Shown here: piece by piece, positions 1-62,170 of the stretch
How the letters are laid out: every line of letters begins with the position of its first letter
Numbering within the stretch: the stretch's first letter is position 1
NCBI GenBank assembly: GCA_030390025.1
Contig: CM059428.1
Location: forward strand, 147,188,001 to 147,252,000
Direction of reading: 5' to 3'
DNA from: Squalus acanthias
Taxonomy: Eukaryota
Length of the DNA stretch: 64,000 nucleotides
Notes under the pieces: generated by a model
Databases searched by the model: none
What the model was told of the DNA's origin: nothing
Seen by the model: the letters and a program-made list of their open reading frames with translations, nothing else
Program-made: the position numbers and the translations under genes

Positions 1-1399
1 AGACAAGTTAAATGGAGAAGCTCTTTAAAAAAAAAAAAATTGTGTAGGCAATTTTTCATAAATGATTAGGTTTGCTTTTAAAGGTCCCCAACCACAAAAA
101 AATGTTTCAAGGGATACATGATGAAAGTGGGTTTAAACAGGGGGCTGTTAGGACATGGAATACCAGGAACAGTGGTAGTTACATAATCTACAATTGCTTT
201 TAAAATGTAAGTGCATATTTATTTGAAAAATAAACATTTTAAAGGGTATGGGCAAAAGGCATGGAATGGGACCAAGTGGATAGTTTTGCAGAGGGTCAGT
301 GCAGGCATGATGAGCCAAATGGCCTCCTCTGTGCTGTAAAATTCTGATTCTATCTTGAATGTATTGTCAATATTGTGTAGCTTTCATTATGGAATGTTCT
401 AAAAGCTATTTGAAAGCTCAATTTTGATAGTTTTAATAACTGCCACAGGTGCCTCTCTAGAATTAGGATTTCAGTTATGAGCAGGTCTCAAAGGAAGGGA
501 ATGCTTGTAACCATGTGGACAGCGAAATAAACTCCAAACTGGTTGAACAACATTCCTTTCATCTTTGCACAGCTAATAAACTACTGTTTCAATACAATAC
601 TACCAGTATCTTAGGAATATGAATTACTGAACCAACATAAATTATGCTGCACTCACAATAGGATTTTATATAATCTCTCATTGATGAAACTAACTACTTT
701 ATACTGAGGGGCAGTAAAGGAGGAGGAAGAAAATATGGGCATCTTTGGGATGAGGAGAAATAACTCTGGGATCTTTGAACTTGGTACAATATATCTTTTT
801 AAAAGTGGGATTGAGGTTAGAGATGTTTAACAACACTGTCTGATTTTTTTTCAGGGTAGGTCAGGGAAAGAGATCTACGTTCCCTAATGAGGCTCTGGAT
901 GGAGCAGGCTTCATGAGCTGTATGGCCTTTTCTCACACTGGATCCTTCTGTGTTCTTACAATGAGTTTGGATTAGAGAGGTTGTGCTGGGTAAGCTGCTA
1001 TTTGCTAACTGTGGGCAATAAATGCCAAATTTGCCAGCGATGCTCACATCTCGAGAATGAAAAAACTACTGAGTAAAACTGTTTTACGCAGAGTTGTTGA
1101 ATAAACTCTGTAATGCCCTTCTTGTGCCAGGTCCTAAATTTGCCTGTGATTAGAGCAGGGAAGTTCACTGTTGGGGGAAGAGAGTCCTAGTTATATTCAG
1201 AGAGATGTAAACTTCCCACCAGTTTGTGAGACTTACCGCCACTATGGAATGTTACTGGGCTTCAGTGTGATGCTTCTGGAGTCTGTAAAAGCCAGAATGT
1301 ACAGGGGAACATGGAGAGAAGTTTCCACCTGGATGAAAGAATGACATTGTTTTGAAGAAATTGTGTTTGTGCTGGGAGCCAGACATATAACCCGATAGG

Positions 1400-1530
1400 T
1401 TGGATTAAGTTGAGTGCAGAGGATTGCTTGCAGGAGCAGGACCTTATCAGTGTATAGTGATAATTTGTGTTTAACTCCTCCAGTCTGTATGCTATATATA
1501 CACTTGGATTTGCGATTATGGCTCAATCTC
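1400..1530 (-). mobile_element. Possible highly decayed L1/Tx1 RT remnant
   Basis: IQTGGVKHKLSLYTDKVLL resembles the L1 GI...HKISLYADDVLL segment. Confidence 0.4.
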
Positions 1531-1544
1531 TAAAGCAAAGACTA

Positions 1545-3200
1545 TAACAACTTGCATTTATTATAAATATGTCCCTAGGTGCTTCACAGAGGAGAAAAGG
1601 ATATTGCACCAAGCCTTTGCAAGAAGGTTCAGAGAGGTAACCGAAGGTTTGGTCGAAAAGCTGTATTTTGAGAAGATGTTTAAAGGTGGGATGTAGGTAG
1701 AAAGGCCAAGGAGTTCAGGGACAGAGTTGCAAAGAGAAGGGCCGAGGCAGGTGAAAACTGCCATCAAAGGTGGAGTAGGTGGGGAGGGAGGGAGACACAG
1801 GAGGCCAGAATCTGAGGACCGGACGGAGCTAGGATGCAGTAAGGCATTAGTTGGATTTGTAGACAATTACCAGGATTTGAACCCAGATCCACTGGGGAAT
1901 GGGAAGCCAATATAGGTCAACAAGGCTGGGAATGATAGTCGAGTGGGACAAGACATGGGTGGCAATGTTTTGGACAATTTGAAGTTTATGGAGAATGAAG
2001 GTCAGGAGGCTGGTAAGAACGATATTGGAGAAGTCAGGTCTGGAGATGGCAAAGGATTTTGGCAGCAATGAAGGTAAAGTAGGGCTGTAGGCACACAGTG
2101 TATGAAGCTCAACTCTGGGGCGAACAAAGCACTAAGATTGTACTCAGTCAGCTTCAGCCACTGCAAGCCGTCAGGGAGGGGGGTGGAGGGGGGATAGCAA
2201 AAAGACAAAGTTTTTGGCAAGGTCTGAAAATGATGTAGGAAAATGAAGAGAAGACCAAGGAGGGATCCCGTGGAGTATTCTGAAGGTGACTGTGTGGCAT
2301 CTCGAGGAAAAGGCATTTCTGGAGCTGCGTTGGGATAGCTAGGAATATGCAAAGGGAATCTCATGAGGTGAACTATGAAGGAGAAGCAGTGATCACCATG
2401 ATAAACACTACTCTATTCTGATATAAACTGCATCGTCAAACCCCTTTTCTTTGCCTCTTGCACCCTTACCTTTAAAGCCAAGGGCGAGGAGTTAATGGAT
2501 TTCCTCATTTCAAAGATTGAGACCATTCAATCTTTGGGGTTTGACGATGCAATTTGTAAGGAGGTACAAGGTGCCACAGAGGATATTGTTGGTGACTTGG
2601 ATCATCGTGATCTCAATGTGTGGGCAGGCCAGGAATTGGACAATGGGATTTGAACAGGTAAAATGAGCTACGAGATGACAGCAAATTCAAGAATCTTGGA
2701 CAAAAAAGGAAGATTAAAGATGGGTTGTTCCAGAGGTGGACATGTCAAGGGTGAGGTCTATTTTTGGAGTACGATGATGATGTCAGTTTCGAAAGGAAAG
2801 TGGCAGTGCCTGATTGGAAGCCATTATCAATATGGGAGAGTGAAAAGTAGTTCAATGGTCAGGAGTTGGGTAGGGAAAAGGATCAAGCATTCAGGAGACA
2901 ATCTCAGAAGAAGGGGAAATGAGCTTGGAGAGGAAGTGTGGAGAGTGGGGTAAGAGTACCTGCAATGTTATACAGGTCAAGGTTAGGTGAGCGATGGGTT
3001 GGGAAGTGATCAGCGACAGGGAAATTAGCATCTGAGCCAGCTGCGTGAATGGGTTCAATCTTTGTGATGAGGAAATCCATTAACTCCTCGCCCTTGGAAT
3101 TGAAGGTAAGGGTAGAAGAGGTGAAGAAAAGGGGTTTGAAAATGCAATTTGTATCAGAATAAAATAGTGAAGACAAAGGACAATCTAGTCTTGTTCCTTG
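1545..3200 (-). mobile_element. Old rearranged L2 LINE
   Basis: L2 tail (aacaacttgcattta at 1546); fragments ISRPDFSN, LYWLPI, ELMDFLITKIE. Confidence 0.65.
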
Positions 3201-3549
3201 GTGGAGGAGAATGCAAATAGTTCAAGTTTTTCATGCACAACAAAATTTGGGGGTTTAGGATTTTAATCCTACTGAATATATCTTTGAAGGCCATTTTCAC
3301 CAACAGAGGAATCAGAAGCCCTAATTCACCCAGTCCAGCGTTTCTCTATATTCAATAAGCTGGAATGGCTGTGCTTTTTGTAAATTAATGCAATTGCAGC
3401 TAACTGAAAGGACAACAGTTGGAAGTATTTTATAGAATTTAGCAGGAAATTCATTGAGCCTGGGGGCCTTTCCAAATTGCAAAGACTAAGAGACTTTACA
3501 AGGATTTCTTCTCTGCAAAACAGTGGGGGAAGAACTGTGCTGGGTACTA

Positions 3550-6015: not shown

Positions 6016-7457
6016 TACTTTCTCTCCATGCCCTCTCCAAATTCTCTTTACAATGCATGTTTGAGATAGCTGTTCCAACCATTCACCATGGAAGACAACA
6101 AATCTAATCAATGAGGAAGAATCTCTGGTTTCACACTGTAATTTTTCAGTTACTTGCAAATACTGGGGATGAATGTCAGTAGCCAATTAGATTGTGACCT
6201 TAGCTGGAACAGGAAACCAGGATCTAGATATTTCAACCAAATTTTGAAGATTCTTTGGTCAGACAACAATCAGCAACAGCCACCAATCGAAAAAAGGTAA
6301 ACCAATCAAATCATTCAAAAAAAAGTTGAAAATACTTTCCGCTGCCATTTTGAACTCTCACTGTCCGAGTACTGGAAATAAGACTTGCAACAAAAGAAAT
6401 AAAAAATTACAAAATTTACAGGAAAACAATTAAAACCTTTATATTATTTTATGCATTTGAAATGCCAGTAACAATGTTCTCCGTCAGAAGTCTGTGCCTA
6501 CAGAAAAAGCCTGAACCTTAAGTTCATGCAGGTTCTTAATCCATCATTGTTAGTTGAAGAGACTCAGCTACGAGCAGGCACTTGTGTGTATAACTTCTAG
6601 TTGTTTGGCTCACAGCAAAACTGGCCATTCATAGCATGCTCGGAATTACTGTTTACAAGCCCCACCAGAAAAATTACTGAGAAAATTATTTTCGGCCTGT
6701 GTACTCATAATATGAACTCCCCTGTGTATGCATTGAAACAATTAGCTGCTTTCCCCAAACATCACAACCACTGAATGTTGAGTAAATTCCTGAGTGCTAT
6801 AGTAGTTAATTATCATAACTAGAAAAGCCTCCAAGGATAAAACTAGTCATTTAGAGGCCACTTTTGACATGCAGGCCCTTAGACAAATCAGTGATCAGGT
6901 CACAAATCTTTCCTAAACCAAATTGAAAGCATTTAACCGTGTAAACAAAACCTTGCCCATCAGGGGTTCTGTAGACAACTCACATCATAGTCTTGCATCC
7001 TTTGCTGTTCCTTAACTCTACCCATATTGTCTCCACTGCCCAATCACCCTTACTAAAATCTCCTCTTTCTATTGTGGTAATTGTGTCTTTTATCAATATT
7101 GCAGTAAGTGTGTCTTTTATCTACTCCCCTTCCTTCCCAATTTCCCTGTCCTTCCAGAGATCCTATAGCCTGGTATATTCAGCTCCCAAGCATGCTCAGA
7201 TTGTAGCCAGATCTATGTAATGGCTACTACATTGTACCCTTTTAGCTGAATTTGTGCTTCTATTTTTTGTATTCGTTCATGGGATGTGGGCATCACTGGC
7301 AAGGCCAGCATTTATTGCCCATCCCTAATTGCCCTCGAGAAGGTGGTGGTGAGCTGCCTTCTTAAACCACGATGCGGAGATGCCGGTGTTGGACTGGGGT
7401 GGACAAAATTGAGAGGTCGCACAACACCAGGTTATAGTCCAACAGTTTTATTTGAAA

Positions 7458-10261: not shown

Positions 10262-10633
10262 ATTCATTCTCAGGATGTGGACATCGCTGGTGAGGCTGGC
10301 ATTTATTGCCTGTCTCTAGTTGCCCGATACAATAGAGGCTTGCTAGACCACTTCAGAGGGCAGTTAAGAGTCAACCACATTGGTGTGGGATTGGAATCAC
10401 ATTTAGGCAGACCAGATAAAGACAGCAGGTTTCCTTTGCCAAAGGACATTAGTGAGCCAGTTGACTTTTTATGACAATCCAACAGCTTCATTGTCACTTT
10501 TGCTGATACAAGTTTTATTTCTGGATTTTTTTTTGAAAAACCGAATTCAAATTCTCAAACTGTCACGGTGGGATTTGAACACTCATTCTCTGGATTATTA
10601 GTCCAGTAACACAACCACTACACTACTGTATCC
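10262..10633 (-). mobile_element. tRNA-headed SINE sharing head and tail with the LINE at 29173-32363
   Basis: 10326-10633 aligns by eye with 32065-32363; 10262-10325 matches the LINE 3' end (gctggcatttattgcc...agttgccc). Confidence 0.8.
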
Positions 10634-12862: not shown

Positions 12863-12934
12863 GCAATTAGGGATGGGCAATAAATGCTGGGCTTGCCAGC
12901 GACGCCCACATCCCATAAACAAATAAAAAAAAAC
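12863..12934 (+). mobile_element. Orphan 3' tail of the same LINE family
   Basis: gcaattagggatgggcaataaatgctgggcttgccagcgacgcccacatccc followed by an A-rich tail. Confidence 0.75.
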
Positions 12935-13354
12935 AGAAACACACACCAAGTATACAAACATTTGTTGCAAAACACACTAAGGGCCTCTGGTGGCAGAAAT
13001 CAAATACTGCATGGAAAAAAAATATATGGGGAATATTACAAAGCACAACATAAAAATGTTTAAATCAGAAAAGTAAGACTTTGTGTAGGTTCGGTATGGA
13101 CTGCCTTCACATATTGGTTGCATATTTACATATGTGAACAAGTATGACCAAGAGAAGTATAAAAACAATGAAATCGTTACAATTAGTTAAATTATAAAGA
13201 ATTGCAGTAGTTTTATCTGGTCGAGACTTGTGTACCTTATTGCTTCACAAATGCCTGTTCCACAAGGGTCTGAGACACACTTAAAATTGCTAGTTTGAAG
13301 ATGATTGGTTATATCTCCATAAATAAATATATCCCACTTGTTCCATTTTATGTT

Positions 13355-14665
13355 TAGAAACTAATAGTAAGATTGGGCAGAGTCAACATGGATCTATGAA
13401 AGGGAAATCCTGTTTGACAAACCTATTGGAGTTCTTTGAGGATGTAACTAGTGGAGTAGACAAAGGGGAACCAGTAGATGTGGTGTATTTGGATTTTCAG
13501 AAGGCCTTCGATAAGGTCCCACACAAGAGGTTGGTGAACAACATTAGGGCACATGGAATTGGGGGTAATATACTAGCATGGATTGAGAATTGGTTAACAG
13601 ACAGAAAACAAAGAGTAGGGATAAACGGGTCTTTTTCAGGATGGCAGGCTGTGACTAGTGGGGTACCGCAAGGATCGGTGCTTGGGCCCCAGCTATTCAC
13701 AATCTATATCAATGATTTGGATGAGGGGACTAAATGTAACATTTCCAAATTTGCTGATGACACAAAGCTAGGTGGCAGTGTCAGTTGCGAAGAGGCTTCA
13801 AGGGGATCTCGACAGGCTCAGTGAGTGGGCGAGAACATGGCAGATGGAATATAATGTGGATAAATGTGAAGTTATCCACTTTGGTAGAAAAAACAGAAAG
13901 GCAGAGTATTTCCTAAATGGTGAAAGATTGGGGAATGCAGATGCTCAAAGGGACCTGGGTTTCCTTGTACATGAGTCACTGAAACTGAATGTGCAGGTGC
14001 AGCAAGCCATTAGGAAGGCAAATGGTATGCTGGCCTTCATTATAAGAGGATTTGAGTACAGGAGTAAAGAAGTCTTACTCCAATTATATAGGGCCTTGGC
14101 GAGACCACACCTGGAGTACTGTGTACGATTTTGGTCTCCTTACCGAAGGAAGGATATACTTGCCATACAGGGAGTGCAACGAAGGTTCACAAGATTGATT
14201 CCTGGGATGGCGGGACTGTCGTATGAAAAGAGATTGAGTAAACTAGGCCTGTATTCTCTTGAATTCAGAAGAATGAGAGGGGATCTCATTGAAGCATACA
14301 AAATTATTACAGGGCTTGATAGGGTGGATGCTGGGAGAATGTTTCCCTTGGCTGGGGAGTCTAGAACCAGGGGTCACAGCCTCAGGATAAAGGGTAGGCC
14401 ATTCAGGACTGAGATGAGAAGAAATTTCTTCACAGAGGGTGGTGAATCTTTGGAATTCTCTACCCCAGAGGGCTGTGGAGGCTCAGTCATTGGGTATATT
14501 CAAAACAGAAGTCGATAGATTTCTGACTAGTAAGGGCATCAAGGGATATGGCGATAGGGCCGGTGAATGGAATTGAGGCAGAAGATCAGCCATGATCTCA
14601 TTGAATGGCGGAGCAGGCTCGAAGGGCCGAATGGCCTGCTCCTGCTCCTATTTCTTATGTTCTTA
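13355..14665 (+). mobile_element. CR1 LINE, 5'-truncated (RT and 3' UTR)
   Basis: [32 protein letters not shown] motifs; 3' stem-loop and ttcttatg tail. Confidence 0.93.
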
Positions 14666-18685: not shown

Positions 18686-20406
18686 ATAGAAACATAGAAG
18701 ATAGGAGCAGGAGTAGGCCATTCGGCCCCTCGAGCCTGCTCCGCCATTTAATGAGATCATGGCTGATCATCCAAATTCAGTACCCTGTCCCTGCTTTCTC
18801 CCCATATCCCTTGATCCCTTTAGCCTTAAGAAATACATCTAACTCCTTCTTGAATATATTTAATGAATTGGCCTCAACTGCCTTCTGTGGTAGAGAATTC
18901 CACAGGTTCAGCACTCTCTGGGTGAAGAAATACCTCCTCATCTCAGTCCTAAATGGCTTACCCCTTATCCTTAGACTGTGACCCCTGGTTCTGGACTCCC
19001 CCGCCATCAGGAACATCCTTCCTGCATCTAGTCCCGTTAGAATTTTATAAGTTTCAATGAGATCCCCTCTCATTCTTCTAAACTCTAGCGAATACAAGCC
19101 CAATCGTCCCAATCTCTCTTCATAAGTCATTCCTGCCATCCCAGGTATCAGTCTGGTGAATCTTCACTGCACTCCCTCCATGGCAAGAACATCCTTCCTC
19201 AGATAAGGCGACCAAAACTGCACACAATACTCAAGGTGTGGTCTCACCAAGGCCCTGTACAACTGTAGCAAGACATCCTTGCTCCTGTACTCGAATCCTC
19301 TCGCTATGAAGGCCAACATACCATTTGCCTTCTTAACCGCCTGCTGCACCTGCATGCTTACCTTCAACGACTGGTGCACAAGGTCTCCCAGGTCTCGTTG
19401 CATTTCCCCTTTTCCCAATCTATTGCCGTTCAGATAATAATCTGCCTTCCTGTTTTTGCCACCAAAGTGGATAACCTCGCATTTATCCACATTATACTGC
19501 ATCTGCCATGCATCTGCCCAATCACCCAACTTGTCCAAATCATACTAGAGTTTCTCTGCATCCTCCTCAAACACACACGCCCACCCAGCTTTGTGTCGTC
19601 TGCAAACTTGGAGATATTACATCTAGTTCCCTCGTCTAGATCATTAATATATATTGTGAATAACTGGGGTCCTAGCACCGATCCCTGCGGTACCCCACTA
19701 GTCACTGCCTGCCACTCGGAAAAACACCCGTTTATTCCAACTCTTTGCTTCCTGTCTGCCAACCAGTTCTCTATCCAAGTCAGTACCTTACCCCCAATCC
19801 CACGTGCTTTAACTTTGCACGCCAATCTCTTATGCGGGACCTTACCGAAAGCCTTCTGAAAGTCCAAATACACCACATCCACTGGTTCTCCCTTATCTAT
19901 TCTACCAGTTACATCCTCAAAAAATTCCAGTAGATTAGTCAAGCATGATTTACCTTTTGTAAATCTATGTTGACTTTGTCCGATCCTGTCACTGTTTTCC
20001 AAGTGCTCTGCTATTACATCTTTTATAATGGACTCTAGCATTTTCCCCACTACCGATGTCAGGCTTATAATTCCCCGTTTTCTCTCTCCCACCTTTTTTA
20101 AATAGTGGGGTTACATTAGCTACCCTCCAATCCATGGGAACTGTTCCAGAGTCTATAGAATTTTGGAAGATGACCAGCAATGCATCTACTATTTCTAGGG
20201 CCACTTCCTTAAGTACCCTAGGATGTAGATTATCAGGCCCTGGGGATTTATCGGCCTTCAATCCCGTCAATTTCCCTAACACCATTTCCCTACAAATACT
20301 GATTTCATTCAGTTCTTCCCTCTCATTGGACCCTATGTTCCCCGACATCTCTGAGAGGTTATTTGTGTCCTCCTTTGTGAAGACAGAACCAAAGTATGTA
20401 TTTAAT
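18686..20406 (-). mobile_element. Younger CR1 LINE, 5'-truncated, nested
   Basis: [19 protein letters not shown] and FADD motifs; catagaaa tail; TGATC duplicated at 18681-18685 and 20407-20411. Confidence 0.92.
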
Positions 20407-21547: not shown

Positions 21548-24500
21548 CATAGAGTCATAACAGCACAGAAGGAGCGGCCATCGAGTCTGTGCCAGCTCTC
21601 TGTAGAGCAATCCAGTCAGTGCCATTCCCCCGCTCTATCCCCGTAGCCCTGCAAGTTTATTTCCCTCAAGTGTCTATCCAGTCTCCCCTTGAAAACATTG
21701 AGTGTCTCCGCTTCCACCACTTCCGTTGGCAGCGAATTCCAGGTCATCACCACTCGCTGCGTAAAACAGTTTTTCCTCACATCCCCCCTGTATCTCTTGC
21801 CCAAAACCTTAAATCAGTGTCCCCTAATCCTTGTACCAAAAACTAGTGGGAACAGCCTTTCCCCATCTAGCCTATCCAAACCCGTCATAATCTTGTACAC
21901 CTCTATCAAATCACCCCTCAACCTCCTTTGCTCTAAAGAAAACAAATCCAGCTTCTCCAGCCTGTCCTTGTAGCTAAGATCCCCCAACCCCAGAACCATT
22001 CTGGTAAATCTCCTCTGCACCCTCTCAAGGGCCTTCACATCCTTCCTAAAGTGCGAAGACCAGAACTGGACGCAATACTCCAGCGCTTTATAAAGGTTCA
22101 GCATAACTTCTCTACTTTTGAACTCAATACCTCTATTTATGAAGCCCAAGATCCCATATATTTTGTTAACCACTCTCTCAATATGTCCTGCCACCTTCAG
22201 GGACCTATGCACATTAACTCCCAGGTCCCTCTGTCCCTGCACACTCTTTAAAACTGTGCCATGAAGTGTATATTGCCTCGCCCTTTTCCTTCTGCCAAAA
22301 TGCATCACCTCACACTTCTCTGTATTAAATTCCATCTGCCACTTGTCTGCCCATTCTGCTAGCCTTTATATGTCCTGTTGCAGTTGATTGGTATAATCAT
22401 CACTGTTTGCCACACCCTCAAGTTTGGTGTCATCGACAAATTTAGAAATTCTACTCTGTATTCCAATATCCAGGTAATTTATACATATCAAAAAAAGCAG
22501 TGGCCCCAGCACCGACCCTTGGGGAACACCACTGTCTACCATCCTCCAGTCTGAAAGACAGCCATTTACCACAACTCGCTGTTTTCTGTCCTTAAGCCAA
22601 TTCCTTATACAAGCTGTCACTGACCCACCTATTCCATGAGCCTCAATTTTGTTAACCAGCCTTCTATGTGGTACTTTGTCAAATGCCTTCCGAAAATCCA
22701 TGTAGACAATATCCACTGCATTCCCTTCATCAATCCTCCCTGTTACTTCATCAAAAAATTCAATTAGATTAGTTAAACACGATCTGCCTTTTACAAATCC
22801 GTGTTGGCTCTCCTCAATTAGCTTAAACCTCTCCAAGTGCCCGTTAATTTTTTCCTTGATTATTGTTTCTAAAACTTTACCCACCACTGATGTTAAACTG
22901 ACTGGCTTGTAGTTACTAGGATTGTCCTTGCACCCTTTCTTGAACAATGGGGTCACATTTGCCACTTTCCAATCCTTAGGCACCTTGCCCGGATCTAGGG
23001 AAGATTGGAAAATTATGGCAAGCCCTTCTGCTATCTCCTCCCCCAATTCCCTTAGCAACCTGGGATGCAAGCCATCTGGACCAGGCGACTTGTCCACTCT
23101 AAGCATACCCAGCCTTTCTAGTACATGTTGTCGATCAATTTTCACCGCTTCCATTGCTTCTAGCTTTTCCACTTCTACTGATATTTTGTTAGCATCCACC
23201 TCCTTAGTAAACACTGATACAAAGTACTCTGATTATTCAACCTTGCCCTGCACCTCTAAGCATATATCACCTTCTTTGTCTCGAATAGGTCCCACCCCGC
23301 CTCTTACTACCCGCTTACTGTTTACATGCCGGCAGAAGATTTTTGGGTTCCCTTTTATGTTAACCGCCATTCTACTCTCATATTCTCTCTTTGCCAATCT
23401 TATTTTCATCTTCACATCCCCTCTCAACTTATTGTATTTGGTCTGGTTCTCCCTTGAAGAATTTACCTGACATGCATCGTACACCCTCTTTTTTTGTTTC
23501 ATCATCTTCTCTATCTCCCTCATCATCCAAGGAGCCCTTGCTTTGGTTCCCTTACCCTTCCCTCTTGTTGGAATGTACCTAGCCTGTACTTGGAACATCT
23601 CCTCCTTAAAGATCACCCATTGTTCCATTACAGTTTTTCCTGTCAGTCTTTAGTTCCCAAGGCTAGATCCTTTCGCATCCCATTGAATTTAGCCCTATTC
23701 CAGTTTAGAAGTTCCACTCTAGATTATTCCTTACTCCTCTCCATTGCTAATCTAAATCTTATGATACGATGATCACTCGTACCCAAGTGTTCTCCCACAG
23801 ACACTTGGTCGACCTGGCCCACCTCATTCCCCAGCACCAGATCCAGCAATGCCTCCTTCCTAGTTGGGCCAAGAACATATTGGTCAAGGAAATTCTCCTT
23901 TACACATTTCAGAAATTCCTCCCCCTCCTTTCCCTTTATCTTAGCATTATCCCAATCGATATTTGGGTAATTAAAGTCCCCCAATATCACAACTCTATAG
24001 CTATTGCATATCTCTGCGATTTCCCTGCAGATTTGCTCCTCTACCTCCCTCTCACTATTTGGAGGCCTACAGAATACCCCCAATAGTGTAATCATACCCT
24101 TTTTGCTCCTCAACTCTAACCAAATGGATTCTGTCCTTGTCCCCTCAAGAACATCCTCCCTTTCCAACACTACAATGTCGTCCTTAATCAGCACTGCCAC
24201 CCCACCTCCCTTTTTTCCTTCCCTATCTTTTCTGAACACCTTGTACCCTTGAATATTAAGTGCCCAGTCCTCACTGTTTTAAGCCACGTTTCCGTTATTG
24301 CCACATGGCTAATTATGCTTGTAGCTCACCAACCTTATTCACCACACTTTGCGCGTTTACGTAAATGCATTCTAAACCCATTTTTGAATTTTTCCTAGTC
24401 TTTCTTAGTCTGCTCCTATCTAATATGGTACTACTACCGCCTCCAGCACCATCTTCTCTAGTACTATCCAAAACACACACTCTTTTATGCATCTTATTCC

Positions 24501-28970: not shown

Positions 28971-29172
28971 GTGTACTACATTGTCAGAAGTGCCATCTTT
29001 TGGATGAGACATTAAACAGATGGTTCAGGTGAATGTAAAAATCCCAGAGCACTATTCGAAGAAGAACAAACTGCATTTGTCTACATAACAGTCATTTCAC
29101 TTCAAAAGTAATTAATTGGTTGTGAATCACTTTGGGATATGATAATGAATTATATAACTCTAAAAATTATTT

Positions 29173-32100
29173 TTTATTCTGGGCGTCACTGGCAAGGCCA
29201 GCATTTATTGCCCATCCCTAATTGCCCTCGAGAAGATGGTGGTGAGCCGCCTACTTGAACCGCTGCAGTCTGTGTGGTGAAGGTACTCCCACAGTACTGT
29301 TAGGGAAGGAGTTCCAGGATTTTGACCCAGCGACAATGAAGGATCGGCGATATACTTCCAAGTCAGGATGGTGTGTGACTTGGAGAGGAACTTAGAGGTG
29401 GTGGTTTTCCCATTAGCCTGCTGCCCTTGTCCTTCTAGGTGGTAGAGGTCGCGGGTTTGGGAGGTGCTGCCGAAGAAGCCTTGGCAAGTTGCTGCAGTGC
29501 ATCTTGTAGATGGTACGCCGGTGGTGGAGGGAGTGAATGTTTAAGGTGATGGATGGGGTGCCAATCAAGTGGGCTGCTTTGTCCTGGATGGTGTCAAGCT
29601 TCTTGAGTGTTGTTGGAGCTGCACTCATCCAGGCAAATGGAGAGTATTCCATCACAGTCCTTACTTATGCCTTGTAGATGGTGGAAAGGCTTTGGGGAGT
29701 CAAGAGGTGAGACACTCTGCCTCTGACCTGCTCTTGTTGCCACAGTATTTATGTGGCTGGTCCAGTTAAGTTTCTGGTCAATGGTGACCCCCAGAATGTT
29801 GATGGTGATGGATTCGGCTATGGTAATGCTGTTGAATTTCAAGGGGTGGTGGTTAGATTCTCGCTTGTTGGAGATAGTCATTGCCTGGCACTTGTGTGGC
29901 GCAAATATTACCTGCCACTTATTAGCCCAAGCCTGAATGTCGTCCAGGTCTTGTTGCATGCGGGCATGGACTGCTTCATTATCTGAGGAGTTGCAAAAGG
30001 CACTGAACACTGTGCAGTCATCAGCGAACATCCCCATTTCTGACCTTATGTTGGAGGGAAGGTCATTGATGAAGCAGCTGAAGATGCTTGGGCCTAGGAC
30101 ATTGCCTTGAGGAACTCCTGCAGCGATGTCCTGGGGCTGTGATGATTGACTTCCAACCACCACAACCATCTTCCTTTGTGCTAGGTATGACTTCAGCCAG
30201 TGGAGAGTTTTCCCTCCGATTCCCATTGACTTCAGTTTTACTAGGGCTCCTTCATGCCACACTCAGTCAAATGCTGCCTTGATGTCAAGGGCAGTCACTC
30301 TCACCTCACCTCTGGAATTCAGCTCTTTTGTCCATGTTTGGACCAAGGCTGTAATGAGGTCTGGAGCCGAGTGGTCCTGGCAGACCCCCAACTGGGCATC
30401 AGTGAACAGGTTATTGGTGAGTAAGTACCACTTGATTGCACTGTTGACGACACCGTCCATCACTTTGCTGATGATTGAGAGTAGACTGATGGGGCGGTAC
30501 TTAGCCAGATTGGATTTGTCCTGTTTTTTGTGGACAGGACATACCTGGGCAGTTTTCCCACATTGTCGGGTAGATGCCAGTGTTGTAGCTGTACTGGAAC
30601 AGCTTGGCTAGAGGCACGGCTGGTTCTGGAGCACAAGTCTTCAGCATGACAGCCGGGATGTTGTCGGGGCCCATAGCCTATGCAGTATCCAGTGCGCTCA
30701 GCCGTTTCTTGATATCACATGGAGTGAATCGAATTGGCTGAAGACTGGCTTCTGTGATGGTGGGAACCTCAGGAGGAGGCCGATATGGATCATCCAGTCG
30801 GCACTTCTGGTTGAAGATGGTTGCAAACACTTCAGCCTTGTCTTTTGCACTCATGTGCTGGGCTCCACCAGCATTGAGGATGGGGATATTCATGGAGCCT
30901 CCTCCTCCAGTTAGTTGTTTAATGGTCCACCACCATTCACGACTGGATGTGGCAGGACTACAGAGCTTTGATCTGATTCGTTGATTGTGGGATCGCTTAG
31001 CCCTGTCTATAGCATGCTGCTTCTGCTTTTTAGCTTGCATGTAGTCCTGTGTTGCAGTTTCCCCAGGTTGGCACCTCATTTTTAGGTATGCCTGGTGCTG
31101 CTCCTGGCATGCTCTTCTACACCCCTTATTGAACCAGGGTTGGTCCCCTGGCTTGATGGTAATGGTAAAGTGAGGGATATGCCGGGCCATGAGGTTACAG
31201 ATTGTGGTGGAATACAATTCTGCTGCTGCTGCTGATGGCCCACAGCACCTCATGGATGCCCAGTTTAGAGCTGCTAGATCTGTTCTGAATCTATCCCATT
31301 TAGCACGGAGGGTGTCCTCAGCGTCAAGACGGGACTTCGTCTCCACAATGATTGTGCGGTGGTCACGGCCAGATGCATCTGCGGCAGGTAGATTGGTGAG
31401 GACGCGGTCAAGTAGGTTTTTCCCTCGTGTTGGTTCTCTCACCACCTGTCGCAGGCCCAGACTGGCAGCTATGTCGTTCAGGACTCGGCCAGCTCGGTCA
31501 GTAGTGGTGCTACCGAGCCACTCTTGGTGATGGACATTGAACTCCTCCACCCAGAGTACATTCTGTGCTACTCTCAGTGCTTCTTCCAAGTGGTGTTCAA
31601 CATGGAGGAGTACTGATTCATCAGCTGAGGGAGGGCGGTAGGTGGTAATCAGCAGGTGGTTTCCTTGCCCCTGCTTGACCTGAAGCCATGAGACTTCATG
31701 GGGTCCGGAATCAATGTTGAGGACTCCCAGGGCCACTCCTTCCCGACTGTATACCACTGTGCTGCCACATCTGGTGGGTCTGTCCTGCCAGTGGGACAGG
31801 ACATACCCAGGGATGGTGATGGAGGAGTTTGGGGACACTGGCTGAAAGGTATGATTCTATGAGTATGATTCTGTCAGGCTGTTGCTTGACTAGTCTGTGG
31901 GACAGCTCTCCCAATTTTGGCACAAGTCCCCAGATGTTGGTGAGGAGGACTTTGCAGGGTCGACTGGGCTGGGTGTGCCATTGTCATGTCCGTAGCCGGT
32001 GCAGAGGTCGATGCCGGGTGGCCCGTCCGGTTTTATTCTTATTATTGCTTTTTGTAGCGGTTTGTTACAACTGAGTGGCTTGCTAGGGCAGTTAAGAATC

Positions 32101-32363
32101 AACCACATTGCTGTGGGTCAAGAGTCACTTATAAGGACGGCAGATTTCCTTCCCTAAAGAACATTAGTGAACCAGATGGGTTTTTACAACAATCCGGTAG
32201 TTTCATGGTCACCATTACTGATGCTAGCTTTTTATTCCAGATTTATTTAATTGAATTTAAATTCCCCAGCTGCCGTGGTGGGATTTGAACTCACGTCTCT
32301 GGATCATTAGTCCAGGTCTCTGGATTACTAGTCCAGTAACATAACCACTATGCTACCGTTCCC
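29173..32363 (-). mobile_element. Apparently full-length (~3.2 kb) decayed LINE: APE endonuclease + RT, no ORF1, tRNA-derived 5' head
   Basis: APE start LLTNIWGL..KLGEL..QQPD..IES at ~31950, TYRPP, FNVHH. RT motifs ALDIKAAFD, GVPQGNVLGP, FADD. 3' end ...GGGCAATAAATGCTGGCCTTGCCAG...A-rich. A/B boxes at the 5' end; possible TSD ATTATTT. Frameshifted. Confidence 0.88.
32281..32355 (-). promoter_or_regulatory. Pol III type-2 internal promoter (A and B boxes) in the LINE 5' head
   Basis: A box TAGCATAGTGG (32355-32345) and B box GAGTTCAAATCC (32292-32281), separated by a duplicated CTGGACTA.T.ATCCAGAGAC hairpin. Confidence 0.7.
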
Positions 32364-34367
32364 TATTATTTGGCAATGCTTGAACACTTTAAATGCATTC
32401 TCTATTAAAAGGATCCAGTAAATACTCTATGAATTTAAATACTTTGAAATCAGAAATAAAAGATTTTACTTTTGCTTCAATTTAATTGAACTTTCTAAGG
32501 CCTGTCTGGTACTAAATATTGGCATGTTATTTATTACAGCCAGTTCACGTTCCCTTCTACTAATGCATGTCTACACTACATGATCATGATGCACAATTAA
32601 AATAACCAAACTTGTTTTGCAGAATTCTACATAAAAGTAACAGGAATTTTTCAGTCACATGTGCACCACTGCATAGGAGACTGTTGTTCAAAAGGATAAG
32701 CTACTTGCTTTTAATTACCTAAATTAAGATGGAAAGTTTACCCTAATGAACACAAACTCCAAAAAAGTTTCCTGTGGATCAAGGAAACAAGAATAGGAAA
32801 ATCATACTATATATTAAACGGTAGCTTTACTATAATTATCCTGTCCTTTAATCATTAAACCATTTTATATTCAGGTTGTATGATATAAAGTCTGTGGTAG
32901 TAGCAGAACATTCTAATCAGCACCAGGCTATCTTTTATAAAAACATCTTTCCACAAATTTAATTGATATCATAATACTGTACTGAGAATACATACAATGT
33001 TAACAAAAAATACTGTTGATTAGATAGCAAATGCCATTATAGCTCACTGTGTCCAACTGCTGCCTTTCCTCCCCTCCCTGCCCCAATACAGCACTAAAGT
33101 CCAACAATTGTTATAATTGCATTGTCGGTTTCCTATGTGTTTAGGGAAATTGTTGCATAAAGAAAAATGTGGACATGTAGGAGTTGGAATGCACAAACAA
33201 TGCTTCACTTCCTTTTACATTCATAAATGTAACAAGGTTCCCCACTGGAAAACAAGGTGTAGCACCAAGATCAATTTAGTGCCAAATCTTAAAAATAGAT
33301 GGAGATTTCCATTCGAGAAAGACAAAACCATATCAATGATTAGCTGTAGCTGCCAGAAGTACTTTATTGAGCAGGAGGTATATCAGTAAAATTCACTGGC
33401 AATACCGAAGTGCCAGAAACTTTAGATTATGTTAAAGGTTAAAATAATTCTCAACATAAACAAGCAGTTTTGCTAGTAAGTCTAGGTTCAAATATTTTTT
33501 TTAAACCTACCTTTTGTTCCAGATACATTTCGCCTACCACAATATTATAGGTTTGATACGCAACTACTGAAAAGATAAATTCTGATGTTTCGGTTTCTTC
33601 ATACACTGTGCCAGCAGTTCAGTAAGCAGCTTACACCAACTGAGCTCTTGCAGCTGTGCGCTGCAAACATACAATCAAGCTCTGACACATAAGGAAAACA
33701 GCTGAGTGGCATCTGAGTTTACATTTGAAGTGCAGTTACTCTGCTTACTCTCCTACACCAAATTTTGTTCTGCTGAATATCAGCATAAAGAGGGAGTAAG
33801 AAATTCTAATATCTTTGCAGCATACAACAAAATTAAGATATATTAATTACAACCCACACACAAGTATCCCACACACTACATGTTATGCTTCTACTACTGA
33901 TTTAGAACAAGTAGAAAGTGACAGATCCGGTAGTATTTCATGTCTCAACTGCCAGTATAATGAATTAATTATATTAGTAGGCCGGAGATGGAGAGATATC
34001 AAATCTGTAAATTCAACATATCATTAAAGAAATTTAATAAAATCACATCCATCTATCACAGTTTACTTCTAATGGTCATATGACTGAACACATTACTCAT
34101 GGCTCCATCAACAAAAGTTCTTCCTACATCACCCCAGCAGACATCTATCAGCAAACAAATTACGCTCATTACTGGCAAAAGATGTCTACTCAGTGGTAAA
34201 AGTTAGAACTATAACTTCTTGCACTTGTTATTGTAAAAATATAGATGAGTATAAAGTGGGGAAGACCTTTTTATACTCGCATTTACTTTTTCACTAAAAA
34301 TAACTACCAGAGGAAAATGTGCCCTTAATGTTCAAGTTTCTCTAATCATTCAATCGGTGAATACATT

Positions 34368-40359: not shown

Positions 40360-42563
40360 GGAAATGTTTGCACTCAGAGGGACCTGGGTGCCCTTGTAAA
40401 TGAATCACAGAAGGTTAACATGCAGGTACAGCAATTAGGAAAGCAAATGGTATGTTAGCTTTTGTTACAAAGGGATTAGAGTATAAGAGTAAAGAAGTCT
40501 TACTACAATTATACAGGGCATTGGTGAGGCCACACCTGAAGTACTGTGTACAGTTCTGGTGTCCTTACCTAAGGAAAGACATACTTGCCTTAGAGGGAGT
40601 GCAGCGAAGGTTCACTAGACTGGTTCCTGGGATGAGGGGATTGCCCTATGAGGAGAGATTGAGTAGACTAGGCCTATATTCCTTAGAGTTTAGAAGAAAG
40701 GTGATCTCATTGAAGCACATAAAATTCTTAATGCTGGGAAAATGTTTCCCCTGGCTGGGGAAATCTAGAATACGGGGTCAAAGTCATAGAATAAGGGGTA
40801 AGCCATTTAGGACTGAGATGAGGAGAAATTTCTTCACTCAAAGGGTTGTGAATCTTTGGAATTCTCTACCCCAGAGAGCTGTGGATGCTCAGTTGTTGAG
40901 TATATTCAAGAGAGAGGTCGATAAATTTTTGGGAACGAGGGGGGTTGAGGGATATGGGGATGGTGCGGAAGGGTGGAGTTGAGGTGGAGGATCAGACATG
41001 GTCTTGGTTTTTTTTTTATTCGTTTATGGGATATGGGCGTTGCTTTCAAGGCCAGCATTTATTGCCCTTGGGAAGGTGGTGGTGAGCCGCCTTCTTGAAC
41101 CGCTGCAGTCCGTGTGGTGAAAGTACTCCCACAGTGCTGTTAGGGAGGGAGTTCCAGGATTTTGACCCAGCGACAATGAAGGATTGGTGATATACTTCTA
41201 AGTCAGGATGGTGTGTGACTTGGAGGGGAACTTGGAGGTGGTGGTGTTCCCATGCGCCTGCTGCCCTTGTCCTTCTAGGTGGAAGAGATCGCGGGTTTGG
41301 GAGGTGCTGCAGTGCATCTTGTAGATGGTACACACTGCAGCCACGGTACGCCAGTGGTGGAGGGAGTGAATGTTTAAGGTGGTGGATGGGGTGTCAATGA
41401 AGCAGGCTGCTTTGTCCTGGATGGTGGTGTGCTTCTTGAGTGTTGTTGGAGCTGCACTCATCCAGGTAAGTGGAGAGAATTCCATCACACTCCTTACTTG
41501 TGCCTTGTAGATGGTGGAAAGGCTTTGGGGAGTCGGGAGGTGAGACACTCGCCGTAGAATACCTAGCCTCTGACCTGCTCTTGTTGCCACAGTATTTATG
41601 TGGCTGGTCCAGTTAAGTTTCTGGTCAATGGTAACCCCCCAGGATGTTGATGGTGGGGGATTCGGCGATAATAATACCATTGAATGTCATGGGGATGTGG
41701 TTAGACTCTTACTTGTTGGAGATAGTCATTGCCAGGCACTTCTGTGGCGCGAATGTTACCTGCCACTTATCAGCCCAAGCCTGAACATCGTCCAGGTCTT
41801 GTTGCATGCAGACATGGACTGCTTCATTATCTGAGGAGTTGTGAATGGCGCTGAACACTATGCAGTCATCAGCGAACATCCCCATTTCTGACCTTATGAT
41901 GGAGGGAAGGTCATTGATGAAGCAGCTGAAGATGGTTGGGCCTAGGACACTGCCCTGAGGAACTCCTGCAGCGATGTCCTGGGGCTCTGATGATTGACCA
42001 TCGACCACCACAACCATCTTCCTTTGTGCTAGGGATGACTCCAGCCAGTGGAGTGTTTTCCCTCCCCGATTCCCATGGACTTCAGTTTTACTAGGGCTCC
42101 TTCATGCCACACTCAGTCAAATGCTGCCTTGATGTCAAGGGCAGTCACTCTCACTTCACCTCGGGAATTCAGCTCCTTTGTCCATGTTTGGACCAAGGCT
42201 GTAATGAGGTCGGGAGCTGAGTGGTCTTGGCGGAACCCAAATTGGGCATAAGTGAGCAGGTTATTGGTGAGTAAGTGCCGCTTGATAGCACTGTCGATGA
42301 CACCTTCCATCACTTTGCTGATGATTGAGAGTAGACTGATGGGGCGTTAATTGGCCAGGTTGGATTTGTCCTGCTTTTTTGTGGACAGGACATACCTGGG
42401 CAGTTTTCCACATTGTCAGATAGATGCCAGTGTTGTAGCTGTACTGGAACAGCTTGGCTCGAGGCGCGGCTAGTTCTGGAGCACAAGTCTTCAGCACGTT
42501 GAGTGGCGGGACAGGCTTGAGGGGCCAAATGGCCTACTCCAGCTCCTATTTCTTACATTCTTA
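40360..42563 (+). mobile_element. CR1 3' portion, its 3' UTR split by the LINE at 41008-42497
   Basis: ORF 40452-40982; tail ...ggccaaatggcctactccagctcctatttcttacattcttatg at 42520-42565. Confidence 0.82.
41008..42497 (-). mobile_element. 5'-truncated copy of the same LINE family (RT and 3' end), nested in a CR1 tail
   Basis: [19 protein letters not shown] and FADD motifs; poly(A) seen as T-run at 41008; CR1 3' UTR resumes at 42498. Confidence 0.88.
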
Positions 42564-58729: not shown

Positions 58730-61600
58730 TTCACTCACAGGATGTGGGCGTCGCTGGCAAGGCCAGCATGAGGGGGTGGACATATGAGGAGAGGTTGAGT
58801 AGATTGGGACTCTACTCATTGGAGTTCAGAAGAATGAGGGGCGATCTTATTGAAACATAGAAGATTGTGAAGGGGCTTGATCGGGTGGATGTGGTAAGGA
58901 TGTTCCCAAGGATGGGTGAAACTAGAACTAGGGGGCATAATCTTAGAATAAGGGGCTGCTCTTTCAAAACTGAGATGAGGAGAAACTTCTTCACTCAGAG
59001 GGTAGTAGGTCTGTGGAATTTGCTGCCCCAGGAAGCTGTGGAAGCTACATCATTAAATAAATTTAAAACAGAAATAGACAGTTTCCTAGAAGTAAAGGGA
59101 ATTAGGGGTTACGGGGAGCGGGCAGGAAATTGGACATGAGGCTGAGTTCGGATCGGTCGAGGCCCTGTGGGTGGCGAAGCGGGCCCAGGGGCTGAGTGGC
59201 TGGGTCCTGCTCCTACTTCTTGTGTTCTTTAGATTTGAGGGGAGGATCAGATCAGCCATGATCTTATTGAATGGCGGAGCAGGCTCGAGGGGCCGCTTGG
59301 CCTACTCCTGCTCCTATTTCTTATGTTATGTTCTTATTGCCCATCCCTAATTGCCCTCGAGAAGGTGGTGGTGAGCCGCCGCCTTGAACTGCTGCAGTCC
59401 GTGTGGTGAAGGTACTCCCACAGTGCTGTTAGGTAGGGAGTTCCAGGATTTCGACCCAGCGATGAAGGAACGGCGATATATTTCCAAGTCAGGATGGTGT
59501 GTGACTTGGAGGGGAACTTGGGGAGGTGGTGGTGTTCCCATGCGCCTGCTGCCCTTATCCTTCTAGATGGTAGAGGTCGCGGGTTTGGGAGATGTTGTCG
59601 AAGTAGCCTTGGCGAGCTGCTGCAGTGCATCTTGTAGATGGTACACACTGCGGCCACGTCACGCCAGTGGTGGAGGAAGTGAATATTAAAGGTGGTGGAT
59701 GGGGTGCCGATCAAGCGGACTGCATTGTCCTAGATGATGTCGAGCTTCGAGTGTTGTTGGAGCTGCATCCATCCAGGCAAGTGGCGAGTATTCCATCACA
59801 CTCCTTACTTGTGCCTTGTAGGCGGTGGAAAGGCTTTGGGGAGTCAGTAAATGAGTTACACGCTGCAGAATACCCAGCCTCTGGCCTGCTCTTGTAGCCA
59901 CAGTATTTATGTGGCTGGTCCAGTTAAGTCTCCAGCTAATGGTGACCCCCCAGGATGTTGGGGAGGGATTCAACGATTGTAATGCCATTGAATATCAAGG
60001 GGAGGTGGTTAGGCTCTCTTTTGTTGGAGATGGTCATTGCCTGGCACTTGTGGTGCGGATATTGCTGGTCACTTATCAGCCAAAGCCTGGATGTTGTCCA
60101 GACCTTGCTGCATGTGGGCAGAGACTCCTTTGTTATCTGAGGAATTGCGAATGGAACTGAACATTGTGCAGTCGTCAATGAACATCCCCACTTCTGACCT
60201 TATGATGGCGGGAAGGTCATTGATGAAGCAGTTGAAAATGGTTGGGCCTAGGACACTGCCCTGAGGAATCCCTGCAGCAATGTCCTGGGGCGGACATGAT
60301 TGACCTCCAACAACCACAACCATCTTCCTTTGTGCTAGGTATGACTCCAGCCAGTGAAGAGTTTTCCCCCGATCCCTGTTGATTTTTACTCGGGCTCCCT
60401 GATGCCACACTCGGTCAAATGTTGCCTTGATGTCAAGGGCAGTCACCTCACCTCTGGAATTCAGCTATTTGTCCATGTTTGGACCTAGGCTGTAATGAGA
60501 TCGGCAGCCAAGTGGCCCTGGCGGAACCCAAACTGGGTATCGGTGAGTAACTGCTGCTCGACAGCACTGTCGATGACACCTTCCATTCACTTTGCTGATG
60601 ATTGAGAGTAGGCTGATGGAACAGTAATTGGCTGGATTAGATTTGTCCTGCTTTTTGTGGACAGGACATACCTGGGCAATTTTCCACTTAGTTGGGTAGA
60701 TGCCAGTGTTTTAGCTGTACTGGAACAGCTTGGCTAGAGGCACAGCTAGTTCTGGAGCACAAGTCTTCAGCACTACAGCCAGGATATTGTTATTCAGCAC
60801 TATAGCCTTTGCCGTATCCAGTGCGCTCAGTCGTTTCTTGATATCATGTGGAGTGAATCGAATTGGCTGAAGAATGGCATCTGTGATGGTGGGGACCTCA
60901 GGAGGAGGCTAATATGGATCATCCACTCAGCACTTCTGGCTGAAGATGGTTGCAAATGCTTCAATCTTGTCTTTTGCACTCACGTGCTGGGCTCTGCCAT
61001 CATTGAGGATGGGGATATTCATGGAGCCTCCTCCTCTCATTAGTTGTTTAATGGTCCACCACCATTCACGATTGGATGTGGCAGGACTAGAGAGCTTTGA
61101 TCTGATCCCTTGATTGTGGGATCGCTTAGCCCTGTCTATAGTATGCTGCTTCCGCTTTTTGGCATGCATGTAGTCCTATGTTGCAGCCTCCCCAGGTTGA
61201 CACCTCATTTTTAGGTACGCCTGGTGCTGCTCCTGGCATGCTCTTCTACACTCCTTATTGAACCAGGGTCGGTCCCCTGGCTTGATGGTAATGGTTGGGT
61301 GAAGGATATGCCGGGCCATGAGGTTACAGATTGTGGTGGAATACAATTCTGCTGCTGCTGATGGCTCACAGTGCCACATGGATGCCCAGTTTTGAGCTGC
61401 TAGATCTGTTCTGAATCTATCCCATTTAGCACAGTGGTAGTGCCACACAACACAATGGAGGGTGTCCTCAGTGTCAAGATGGGACTTCGTCTCCACAATG
61501 ACTGTGCGATGGTGACTGCTACCAATACCGTCATGGACAGATGAAGCTGCGACCAGTAGATTGGTGAGGATGAGGTCAAGCAGGTTTTTCCCCTCGTGTT
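58730..61600 (-). mobile_element. 5'-truncated copy of the same LINE family, interrupted by CR1 at 58770-59333
   Basis: Collinear with 29173-31430. The host motif ggccagcat|ttattgcccatccc is split by the CR1 insertion. Confidence 0.88.
58770..59333 (+). mobile_element. Young 5'-truncated CR1 with two tandem 3' UTR modules
   Basis: ORF 58867-59139; modules at ~59139-59231 and ~59233-59333, both ending ctgctccta.ttctt.tgtt. Confidence 0.88.
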
Positions 61601-62170
61601 TGTTAAATTATCAGAAGCTTTCCTTAATTTAATCTAAAACCAGTTCATATTTCTGGTCTACAAAGAGATCATTTAGTGTGTATCAAACGTCTTTAGAAAT
61701 ACGGTTTAAGACAGGAACAGACACAGCTTCAACGACAAACCTGCAAAGTAAAAATCTTGTAGTTGCATCTCTGTGTCATGTCGTAACTTGCCGACCAGTT
61801 CATTCCTGATCAGTAATACATTTTTCTAGGTGTTTTAGTCAGACGAGGTTTTTAAAACCAATATATAAATTAGTGTGTGTATATAGGCCACACACACAGT
61901 GTCACTCAATTCAACATTGCACTGTATTAGCTATGGCACATTTTTCATGCGATCAATAATTTCTATAATAAATACACACACAGTGTCAGGGCAATACACA
62001 AAAGTGAAGAAAAAACCCTCAGCTCTGGTGATGAAATAATAAATGAGGCAGAGAGAGAAATGAGCATGCATTTCAGAAATATCTGAAAGTTTATGAACTG
62101 CTCTTCCCCCCCTTTAGATATAAAACATTTAAATGCAATAACCATCACATTGAAACCTGACTCCCACAGA

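Follow-up and report, generated by a model that had tools for sequence, protein, structure and literature searches.

SacSINE1 and the DeuSINEs, reportedly described by Nishihara and colleagues in 2006, combine a tRNA head, a conserved body and a LINE-type tail, and have been described as non-coding elements with a separate partner LINE. The free SINEs of the family analysed here, to which we take this label to apply, have all three parts, but in our case the head and body of the SINE are present on the partner LINE itself. In the literature where DeuSINEs and SacSINE1 are discussed (PMC5499810, PMC4824008, PMC3747384), CmiSINEs are given a tail from L2-2_CM at 78.6%, with 'CR1-4_DR-like' as another tail partner, and the function of the central SINE domain is called unknown (PMC4824008). 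In this regard, other composite elements come close to the one reported here without matching it. The short Persaeus SIDE forms of lepidopteran Zenon elements arise through internal deletion, with variable breakpoints and possibly repeatedly, but they have neither tRNA homology nor a Pol III promoter (PMC6740152), whereas the deleted forms described below are textbook SINEs. SINEs with bipartite LINE sequences, such as Bov-tA or SINE2-1_ACar with Vingi-2_ACar, join a tRNA head to 5′ and 3′ parts of a LINE (Kojima 2018, PMC5786205); these are non-coding and received their head after the deletion, whereas here the head sits on a full coding element. Small-RNA-derived Pol III promoters are also found in the TRIM retroelements Cassandra, Helenus and Ajax which, unlike the element here, are of the LTR type, non-coding and at most 1,263 bp long (PMC10886601).

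On the LINE side, Zenon elements lacking an ORF1 and ending in a poly-A tail have been described in five elasmobranchs (Stuart et al. 2026, PMC13343379). The main text of that paper does not mention tRNA, Deu, SacSINE or polymerase III, nor does its supplement mention tRNA, and the head, the purge of T runs, the missing AUG and the derivation of SINEs go unremarked in it. A LINE with a SINE front end has apparently been published as a sequence but not as an idea, and our searches of the openly accessible literature met with no account of a coding LINE that has a tRNA head. Here we describe what we consider, on balance, to be a dead copy of a once self-mobilising 3.3-kb Zenon LINE with the complete tRNA-derived head and body of a SINE at its 5′ end, whose RNA is likely made from end to end by Pol III and whose translation likely needs no AUG.

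The element at the locus and its family

Judged by its sequence, the element at 29167..32363 of the window (the whole 64,000-nt stretch of Squalus acanthias DNA analysed) is a decayed full-length copy of a tRNA-headed, single-ORF LINE of the elasmobranch Zenon family, in which the following parts can be recognised:

32363 to about 29167, minus strand: whole element, aligning to positions 1-3289 of the 3315-nt consensus at 92.5% BLAST identity
32277..32363, minus strand: tRNA-derived head (Rfam tRNA, 26.3 bits, E 0.0031), first base at 32363
32345..32355, minus strand: A box, a type 2 Pol III promoter motif by sequence
32281..32292, minus strand: B box, by sequence
32295..32336, minus strand: tandem duplication of 21 nt in the anticodon-arm region (Tandem Repeats Finder, 2.0 copies, 90%)
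32068..32276, minus strand: SINE body, common to the free SINEs and the LINE and shared with SINE copies
31945..32067, minus strand: linker, a stop codon followed by the open, Arg-rich ORF frame without in-frame AUG
32058-32056, minus strand: GCT near which a candidate non-AUG start would lie
29218..32064, minus strand: single APE-RT frame, broken here, 973 codons from stop to stop in the consensus
29167..29300, minus strand: 3′ tail with A-rich end, common to the free SINEs (35,258 exact matches to a 26-mer from it)
32365..32371, plus strand: ATTATTT, possible 7-bp TSD on the 5′ side of the element, low complexity
29166..29172, plus strand: ATTATTT, possible 7-bp TSD on the 3′ side, overlapping the A-rich tail

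The A box, duplicated hairpin, B box, endonuclease, RT and A-rich tail listed in the original prediction are all there. The LTNI motif of the endonuclease begins at 31944, and the broken frame still matches Exo_endo_phos_2 (E 2e-6) and, in two pieces, Pfam RVT_1 (E 8e-20 and 5e-8). With respect to the consensus, this copy shows 11 indels, plus frameshifts and stops that break the ORF, and it lacks the final ~15 nt before the A tract, its A-rich tail lying near 29178-29167. The 3′ part of the body (about 32185-32068) is what we take to be the Deu domain of SacSINE1. As for the Pol III head of the original prediction, its tRNA likeness turned out to be real but modest, and its promoter is recognised by sequence only: the Rfam score (601-base search) falls below the 29-bit cut-off, ARAGORN makes no tRNA call within the 64-kb window and Rfam gives no match at E ≤ 0.05 on four longer head-bearing loci, so this is a derived head and not a tRNA gene. 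By its head and its A and B boxes the element resembles a tRNA-derived SINE (SINE2), with that sub-cut-off score, but at 3.3 kb and with a selected ORF it is neither short nor non-coding.

Forty loci were taken as likely long copies, 30 of which have head and tail and, together with the window copy, gave a 31-copy consensus. The majority sequence is 3,315 nt long, the copies being 94-97% identical each, and a jump in column conservation among the 31 copies sets a sharp 5′ end for the family at window position 32363. After a 329-nt leader, the consensus holds a single APE-RT frame of 973 codons (bases 330-3251), the one intact ORF that the original prediction had proposed to look for. A copy with both the head and the whole ORF intact was not seen among those fetched, a small sample of thousands, and in full copies with a head the natural frames reach 778 aa at most. 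Variants shared by several copies should mostly derive from source elements. After removal of CpG-type sites, variants present in at least three copies fell into 60 synonymous and 57 missense changes plus 1 stop, and singletons into 334, 781 and 57, respectively, that is, a synonymous share of 51% versus 28%. The resulting omega of about 0.38 for shared variants (P 1.6e-6) indicates purifying selection, and the true value is probably lower because recurrent mutation dilutes the shared class. Headed source copies encoded a protein under purifying selection.

The assignment to Zenon, a CR1-group LINE, agrees with the single APE and RT ORF, the absence of ORF1 and the poly-A tail, all of which were found. 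The first 400 nt of the published SquAca_Zenon-1 (3,314 nt) match our consensus by eye almost letter for letter and, in the first 400 nt compared, the seven elasmobranch Zenon consensuses (SquAca_Zenon-1, -2 and -3, and Zenon-1 of CarCar, ScyCan, RhiTyp and HypSab) all open with the tRNA head and body (PMC13343379). In contrast, the Zenon consensuses of coelacanth and hagfish show no such head in their first 400 nt, and they do contain T runs. The lack of room for an ORF1, which had been noted at the outset, is a general Zenon trait; a causal role of the head in the loss was rejected, since Zenon and the metagenome relatives are also single-ORF elements. A quick tree of 45 RTs, built without a named Zenon, L2 or Ingi/Vingi reference, agrees loosely: the element falls into a 34-row group (SH-aLRT 97) that also contains a moth protein and single-ORF relatives lacking a name, and the host CR1s lie outside it. 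None of 80 metagenome relatives showed the head by BLAST and A/B-box pattern, although these are 25-63% identical and the closest group is barely sampled, and none of 20 did by Rfam; relaxed ARAGORN made 23 scattered calls among them, the one abutting an ORF start (L345) without Rfam support. Searches of viral contigs did not find the family, and those of the PDB gave generic L1/R2 matches only.

T runs and the choice of polymerase

Vertebrate Pol III terminates at runs of four or more T. Such terminators, whose presence on the sense strand the original prediction had suggested examining, are absent from the consensus, where no TTTT occurs in 3,315 bases against 14 runs of A, 11 of C and 9 of G. 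Under a null model (3000 draws), which keeps both the protein and the third-position base use of the ORF, 18.5 TTT runs are expected and 5 are observed, with none of the draws that low, whereas for TTTT the expectation is 3.6 and the observation zero (P 0.015). Shuffling of the codons within the ORF, in contrast, gives a mean of 1.85 TTTT, against which the observed zero is not significant (P 0.11). A first host CR1 control behaved as expected (observed/expected 33/31.9 for TTT and 12/10.0 for TTTT), a second one was somewhat low in TTT (15/20.3, P 0.05; TTTT 3/5.6), and the 3′ end of a host L2 contains 7 TTTT within 567 nt. Moreover, the 37 of the 80 metagenome loci with frames of at least 800 codons, all invertebrate relatives, never fall below 0.75 (TTT) or 0.49 (TTTT) of their nulls. 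The two CR1 families taken as controls lie in the window itself, at 21889-24278 (minus), 19041-20273 (minus) and 13354-14305 (plus), the second having genome matches at 97-99% identity. As a trace of Pol III in the sequence, the T-run signal appears strong for TTT and moderate for TTTT, and it is indirect. The tRNA-like promoter head together with the absence of the Pol III stop signal makes a Pol III-made protein-coding element likely.

In the published sequences, the A box is kept in the consensuses of five elasmobranch species (by eye) and the B box in those of four, HypSab being one base short, and the sequence between them varies across sharks and rays (by eye). In seven organisms contigs include the head, the linker and the ORF, X3 having two short records that bridge them, although contigs cannot show transcription. 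With the unit real and autonomous, its RNA could nevertheless be made by Pol II, the captured SINE part serving as a 5′ UTR or as an internal Pol II promoter and the boxes and T-run scarcity having other causes. LINEs are said to be Pol II units and Pol III RNAs to be limited in length (PMC10886601), the sense strand is T-poor (19.6%), and the codon shuffle mentioned above is not significant. Against it, the boxes have been kept despite their variable surroundings, the TTT depletion is missing from two of three host controls and from the 37 relatives, and a capped, scanned RNA would face nine upstream AUGs with none in frame, so that we regard transcription by Pol II as rather unlikely, if deserving of attention.

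The leader and the start of translation

In the 31-copy consensus no in-frame AUG precedes the endonuclease, the first in-frame Met being codon 288, beyond that domain, and each of the nine leader AUGs is either closed or out of frame. An out-of-frame AUG just upstream of the ORF is found in the main consensuses of all five species, and a start there followed by a frameshift was tried and rejected, since 39 of 91 copies have AUA instead and no canonical slippery site was seen by eye. Read-through of a short in-frame uORF was likewise discarded, being blocked by two stops in the S. acanthias genome. This uORF of two codons (consensus 303-329, window about 32090-32064) ends in a TAG that has become GAG or CAG in 20 of the 91 copies, where the later TAA nearly always closes the frame anyway (it does so in 79 of 91 copies overall). 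The consensuses of the other species keep the TAG and have no TAA, and a stop just 5′ of the ORF may be maintained.

An Arg-rich stretch of 37 codons precedes the endonuclease and resembles the N-terminus of P0010, a 40%-identical relative. The codons GCT-ACN/AAA-AAR lie in the ORF frame in the consensuses of all five species (by eye), the register upstream of them differing in RhiTyp (by eye), and of 63 copies 59 have a spacing just past GCT that is divisible by three, as do 15 of the 19 that deviate, which slippage of an AAT repeat could also explain. A putative non-AUG start would thus be located near window position 32058. In searches for structure, the leader gave no stable fold beyond shuffles (z 0.31; z 0 to -1 in a second test) and no compensated pairs among 31, and a dicistrovirus-type IGR IRES, also considered, yielded no stable or covarying fold under pseudoknot-free folding; the initiation mechanism is accordingly without structural support. 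In this line, a review raised non-AUG, IRES-type initiation as a possibility for the ORF2 of LINEs (PMC3894237), and for Pol III RNAs the ORF2 protein alone has been reported to suffice for retrotransposition (PMC2666806).

The purge of T runs and the missing AUG could also be accounted for without any new initiation mechanism if the life cycle were split, with Pol III making the template RNA and the protein coming from a separate, capped RNA that Pol II would make from these copies or from sister copies, its translation start being supplied by read-through or splicing. The negative searches for leader structure agree with this scheme, as do the pieces of the ORF contained in several annotated gene models of sharks (P0002, P0005-P0008). 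The inclusion of these pieces is probably an annotation artefact or exonisation; one Heterodontus gene model covers the body end, the linker and the endonuclease. However, selection on the ORF in headed sources requires that protein and template come repeatedly from one lineage, and an unsystematic look revealed no conserved splice or start arrangement, which leaves a split cycle as quite an improbable solution.

The mobile unit and the free SINEs

A query with the head-endonuclease junction gave 3,961 candidates in the genome, of which 40 were scored, and exact 26-mers from the body end and from the start of the endonuclease had 4,363 and 5,290 matches, respectively, whereas reversed controls, that of the tail 26-mer included, had no match. 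The junction, whose recurrence the original prediction had proposed to test, is thus present at thousands of places and is not a peculiarity of this locus. In a test unbiased towards the head, the first 30 endonuclease-start matches were taken in position order: 19 extend to the A box, and the others end in the tRNA part (4), the body (5) or the linker (2). Similarly, among the 29 best-scoring matches to an ORF-only query, 18 reach the A box and a single one ends in the tRNA part, with the body and the linker accounting for 5 each. No upstream sequence is common to the 17 copies whose truncation lies past position 100, and no alternative 5′ UTR or ORF1 of the conventional kind was found in the 59 copies examined. 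Moreover, in 6 of the 30 full copies the element splits an older repeat whose halves rejoin in an empty-site test, the joins overlapping by 0-6 nt or leaving small gaps; 6 other copies have repeat matches on both flanks that do not rejoin, and the remainder are repeat-free on one side. The idea of a SINE-LINE hybrid moving as one unit is in this way borne out by six head-to-tail copies, each inserted whole in a single event. The 28 two-ended copies have A tracts at their 3′ end, and 5 of them share end words of at least 6 nt, versus 7.4% of mismatched pairs. Such sharing is not enriched across the family, so that TSDs carry little weight, and the ATTATTT words of the original prediction, present at both ends as described, amount to weak evidence.

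That a SINE simply inserted next to a truncated LINE, or became joined to one by template switching, here or repeatedly by chance, might seem in keeping with the abundance of free SINEs having the same head, body and tail and with the unenriched TSDs, but it is no longer credible to us, refuted as it is by the empty-site joins of single-event insertions, by a copy survey with one fixed junction in every headed copy and no alternative 5′ end in 59, and by the identical junction in the consensuses of five species.

Other traces of the family were noted along the way. Further 5′-truncated copies occur in the window at 41008-42498 (minus, 93% to the consensus) and 59334-61604 (minus, 90%). Two headed copies about 4.3 kb apart in near-tandem on a small contig (L285 and L304, G000:C242) are possibly a segmental or tandem duplication. 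A relic 67% identical to the family consensus (L086:487-1150) hints at much older activity of the family, and a search for an older headed subfamily behind it retrieved only the same family. Deletions of 10-25 nt with respect to the consensus are frequent in the copies (in the window, for instance, at 29512, 31306 and 31366), suggesting a deletion-prone host genome.

The free SINEs look like internal deletions of the LINE, and their sequences fit families shed by deletion. Of the first 30 body-end matches, 17 are followed by the ORF and 13 pass directly to the tail. The latter do so at several breakpoints, some of them common to several copies, and many of these junctions are bordered by a piece of the LINE linker and, across the break, by the last portion of the ORF. 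Larger internal deletions are also present (L180, L183, L185). In a head tree of 59 LINE and 20 SINE sequences both kinds interleave without support (11 changes), and none of the supported branches requires multiple origins. DeuSINEs are widespread (PMC4824008) and the relatives are headless, for which reasons capture of the head in the shark-ray lineage is favoured. The window also holds an older free SINE of the same head, body and tail type (10273-10606, minus, about 80% to the consensus), as well as tail-only fragments at 7263-7368, 12863-12933 and 58740-58769.

In the life cycle that we would propose for the Pol III-transcribed Zenon element, TFIIIC would bind the A and B boxes, and Pol III would traverse the T-run-free element and stop at a run of T in the flank. 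Translation of the uncapped RNA would then begin internally and at a low rate, at a non-AUG codon close to where the SINE body ends, and the resulting protein would copy its own RNA starting from the 3′ tail. With promoter and tail at opposite ends, any internal deletion would yield a working SINE, a route with which the several breakpoints observed agree. Taken to its full extent, and here we speak tentatively, sharks and rays could have kept an autonomous retrotransposon that is a natural protein-coding Pol III unit, whose uncapped 3.3-kb RNA is entered internally in the SINE body at a non-AUG codon and which repeatedly sheds SINE families, with the Deu domain as a ribosome-engaging module and not inert filler.

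SINEs are held to be elements that 'cannot encode a protein' (PMC5786205). The divide between LINEs and SINEs rests on polymerase and coding capacity, LINEs being regarded as Pol II-transcribed and coding and SINEs as Pol III-transcribed (PMC10886601), and a high-copy family uniting a Pol III promoter with a 3-kb ORF under selection would run counter to this rule. If true, there would be a direct route from LINE to SINE through simple deletion, and the unexplained central domain of SINEs would have a first coding context in which to be tested. A compact, single-ORF element driven by Pol III would, in addition, be a useful model for the translation of uncapped mRNAs.
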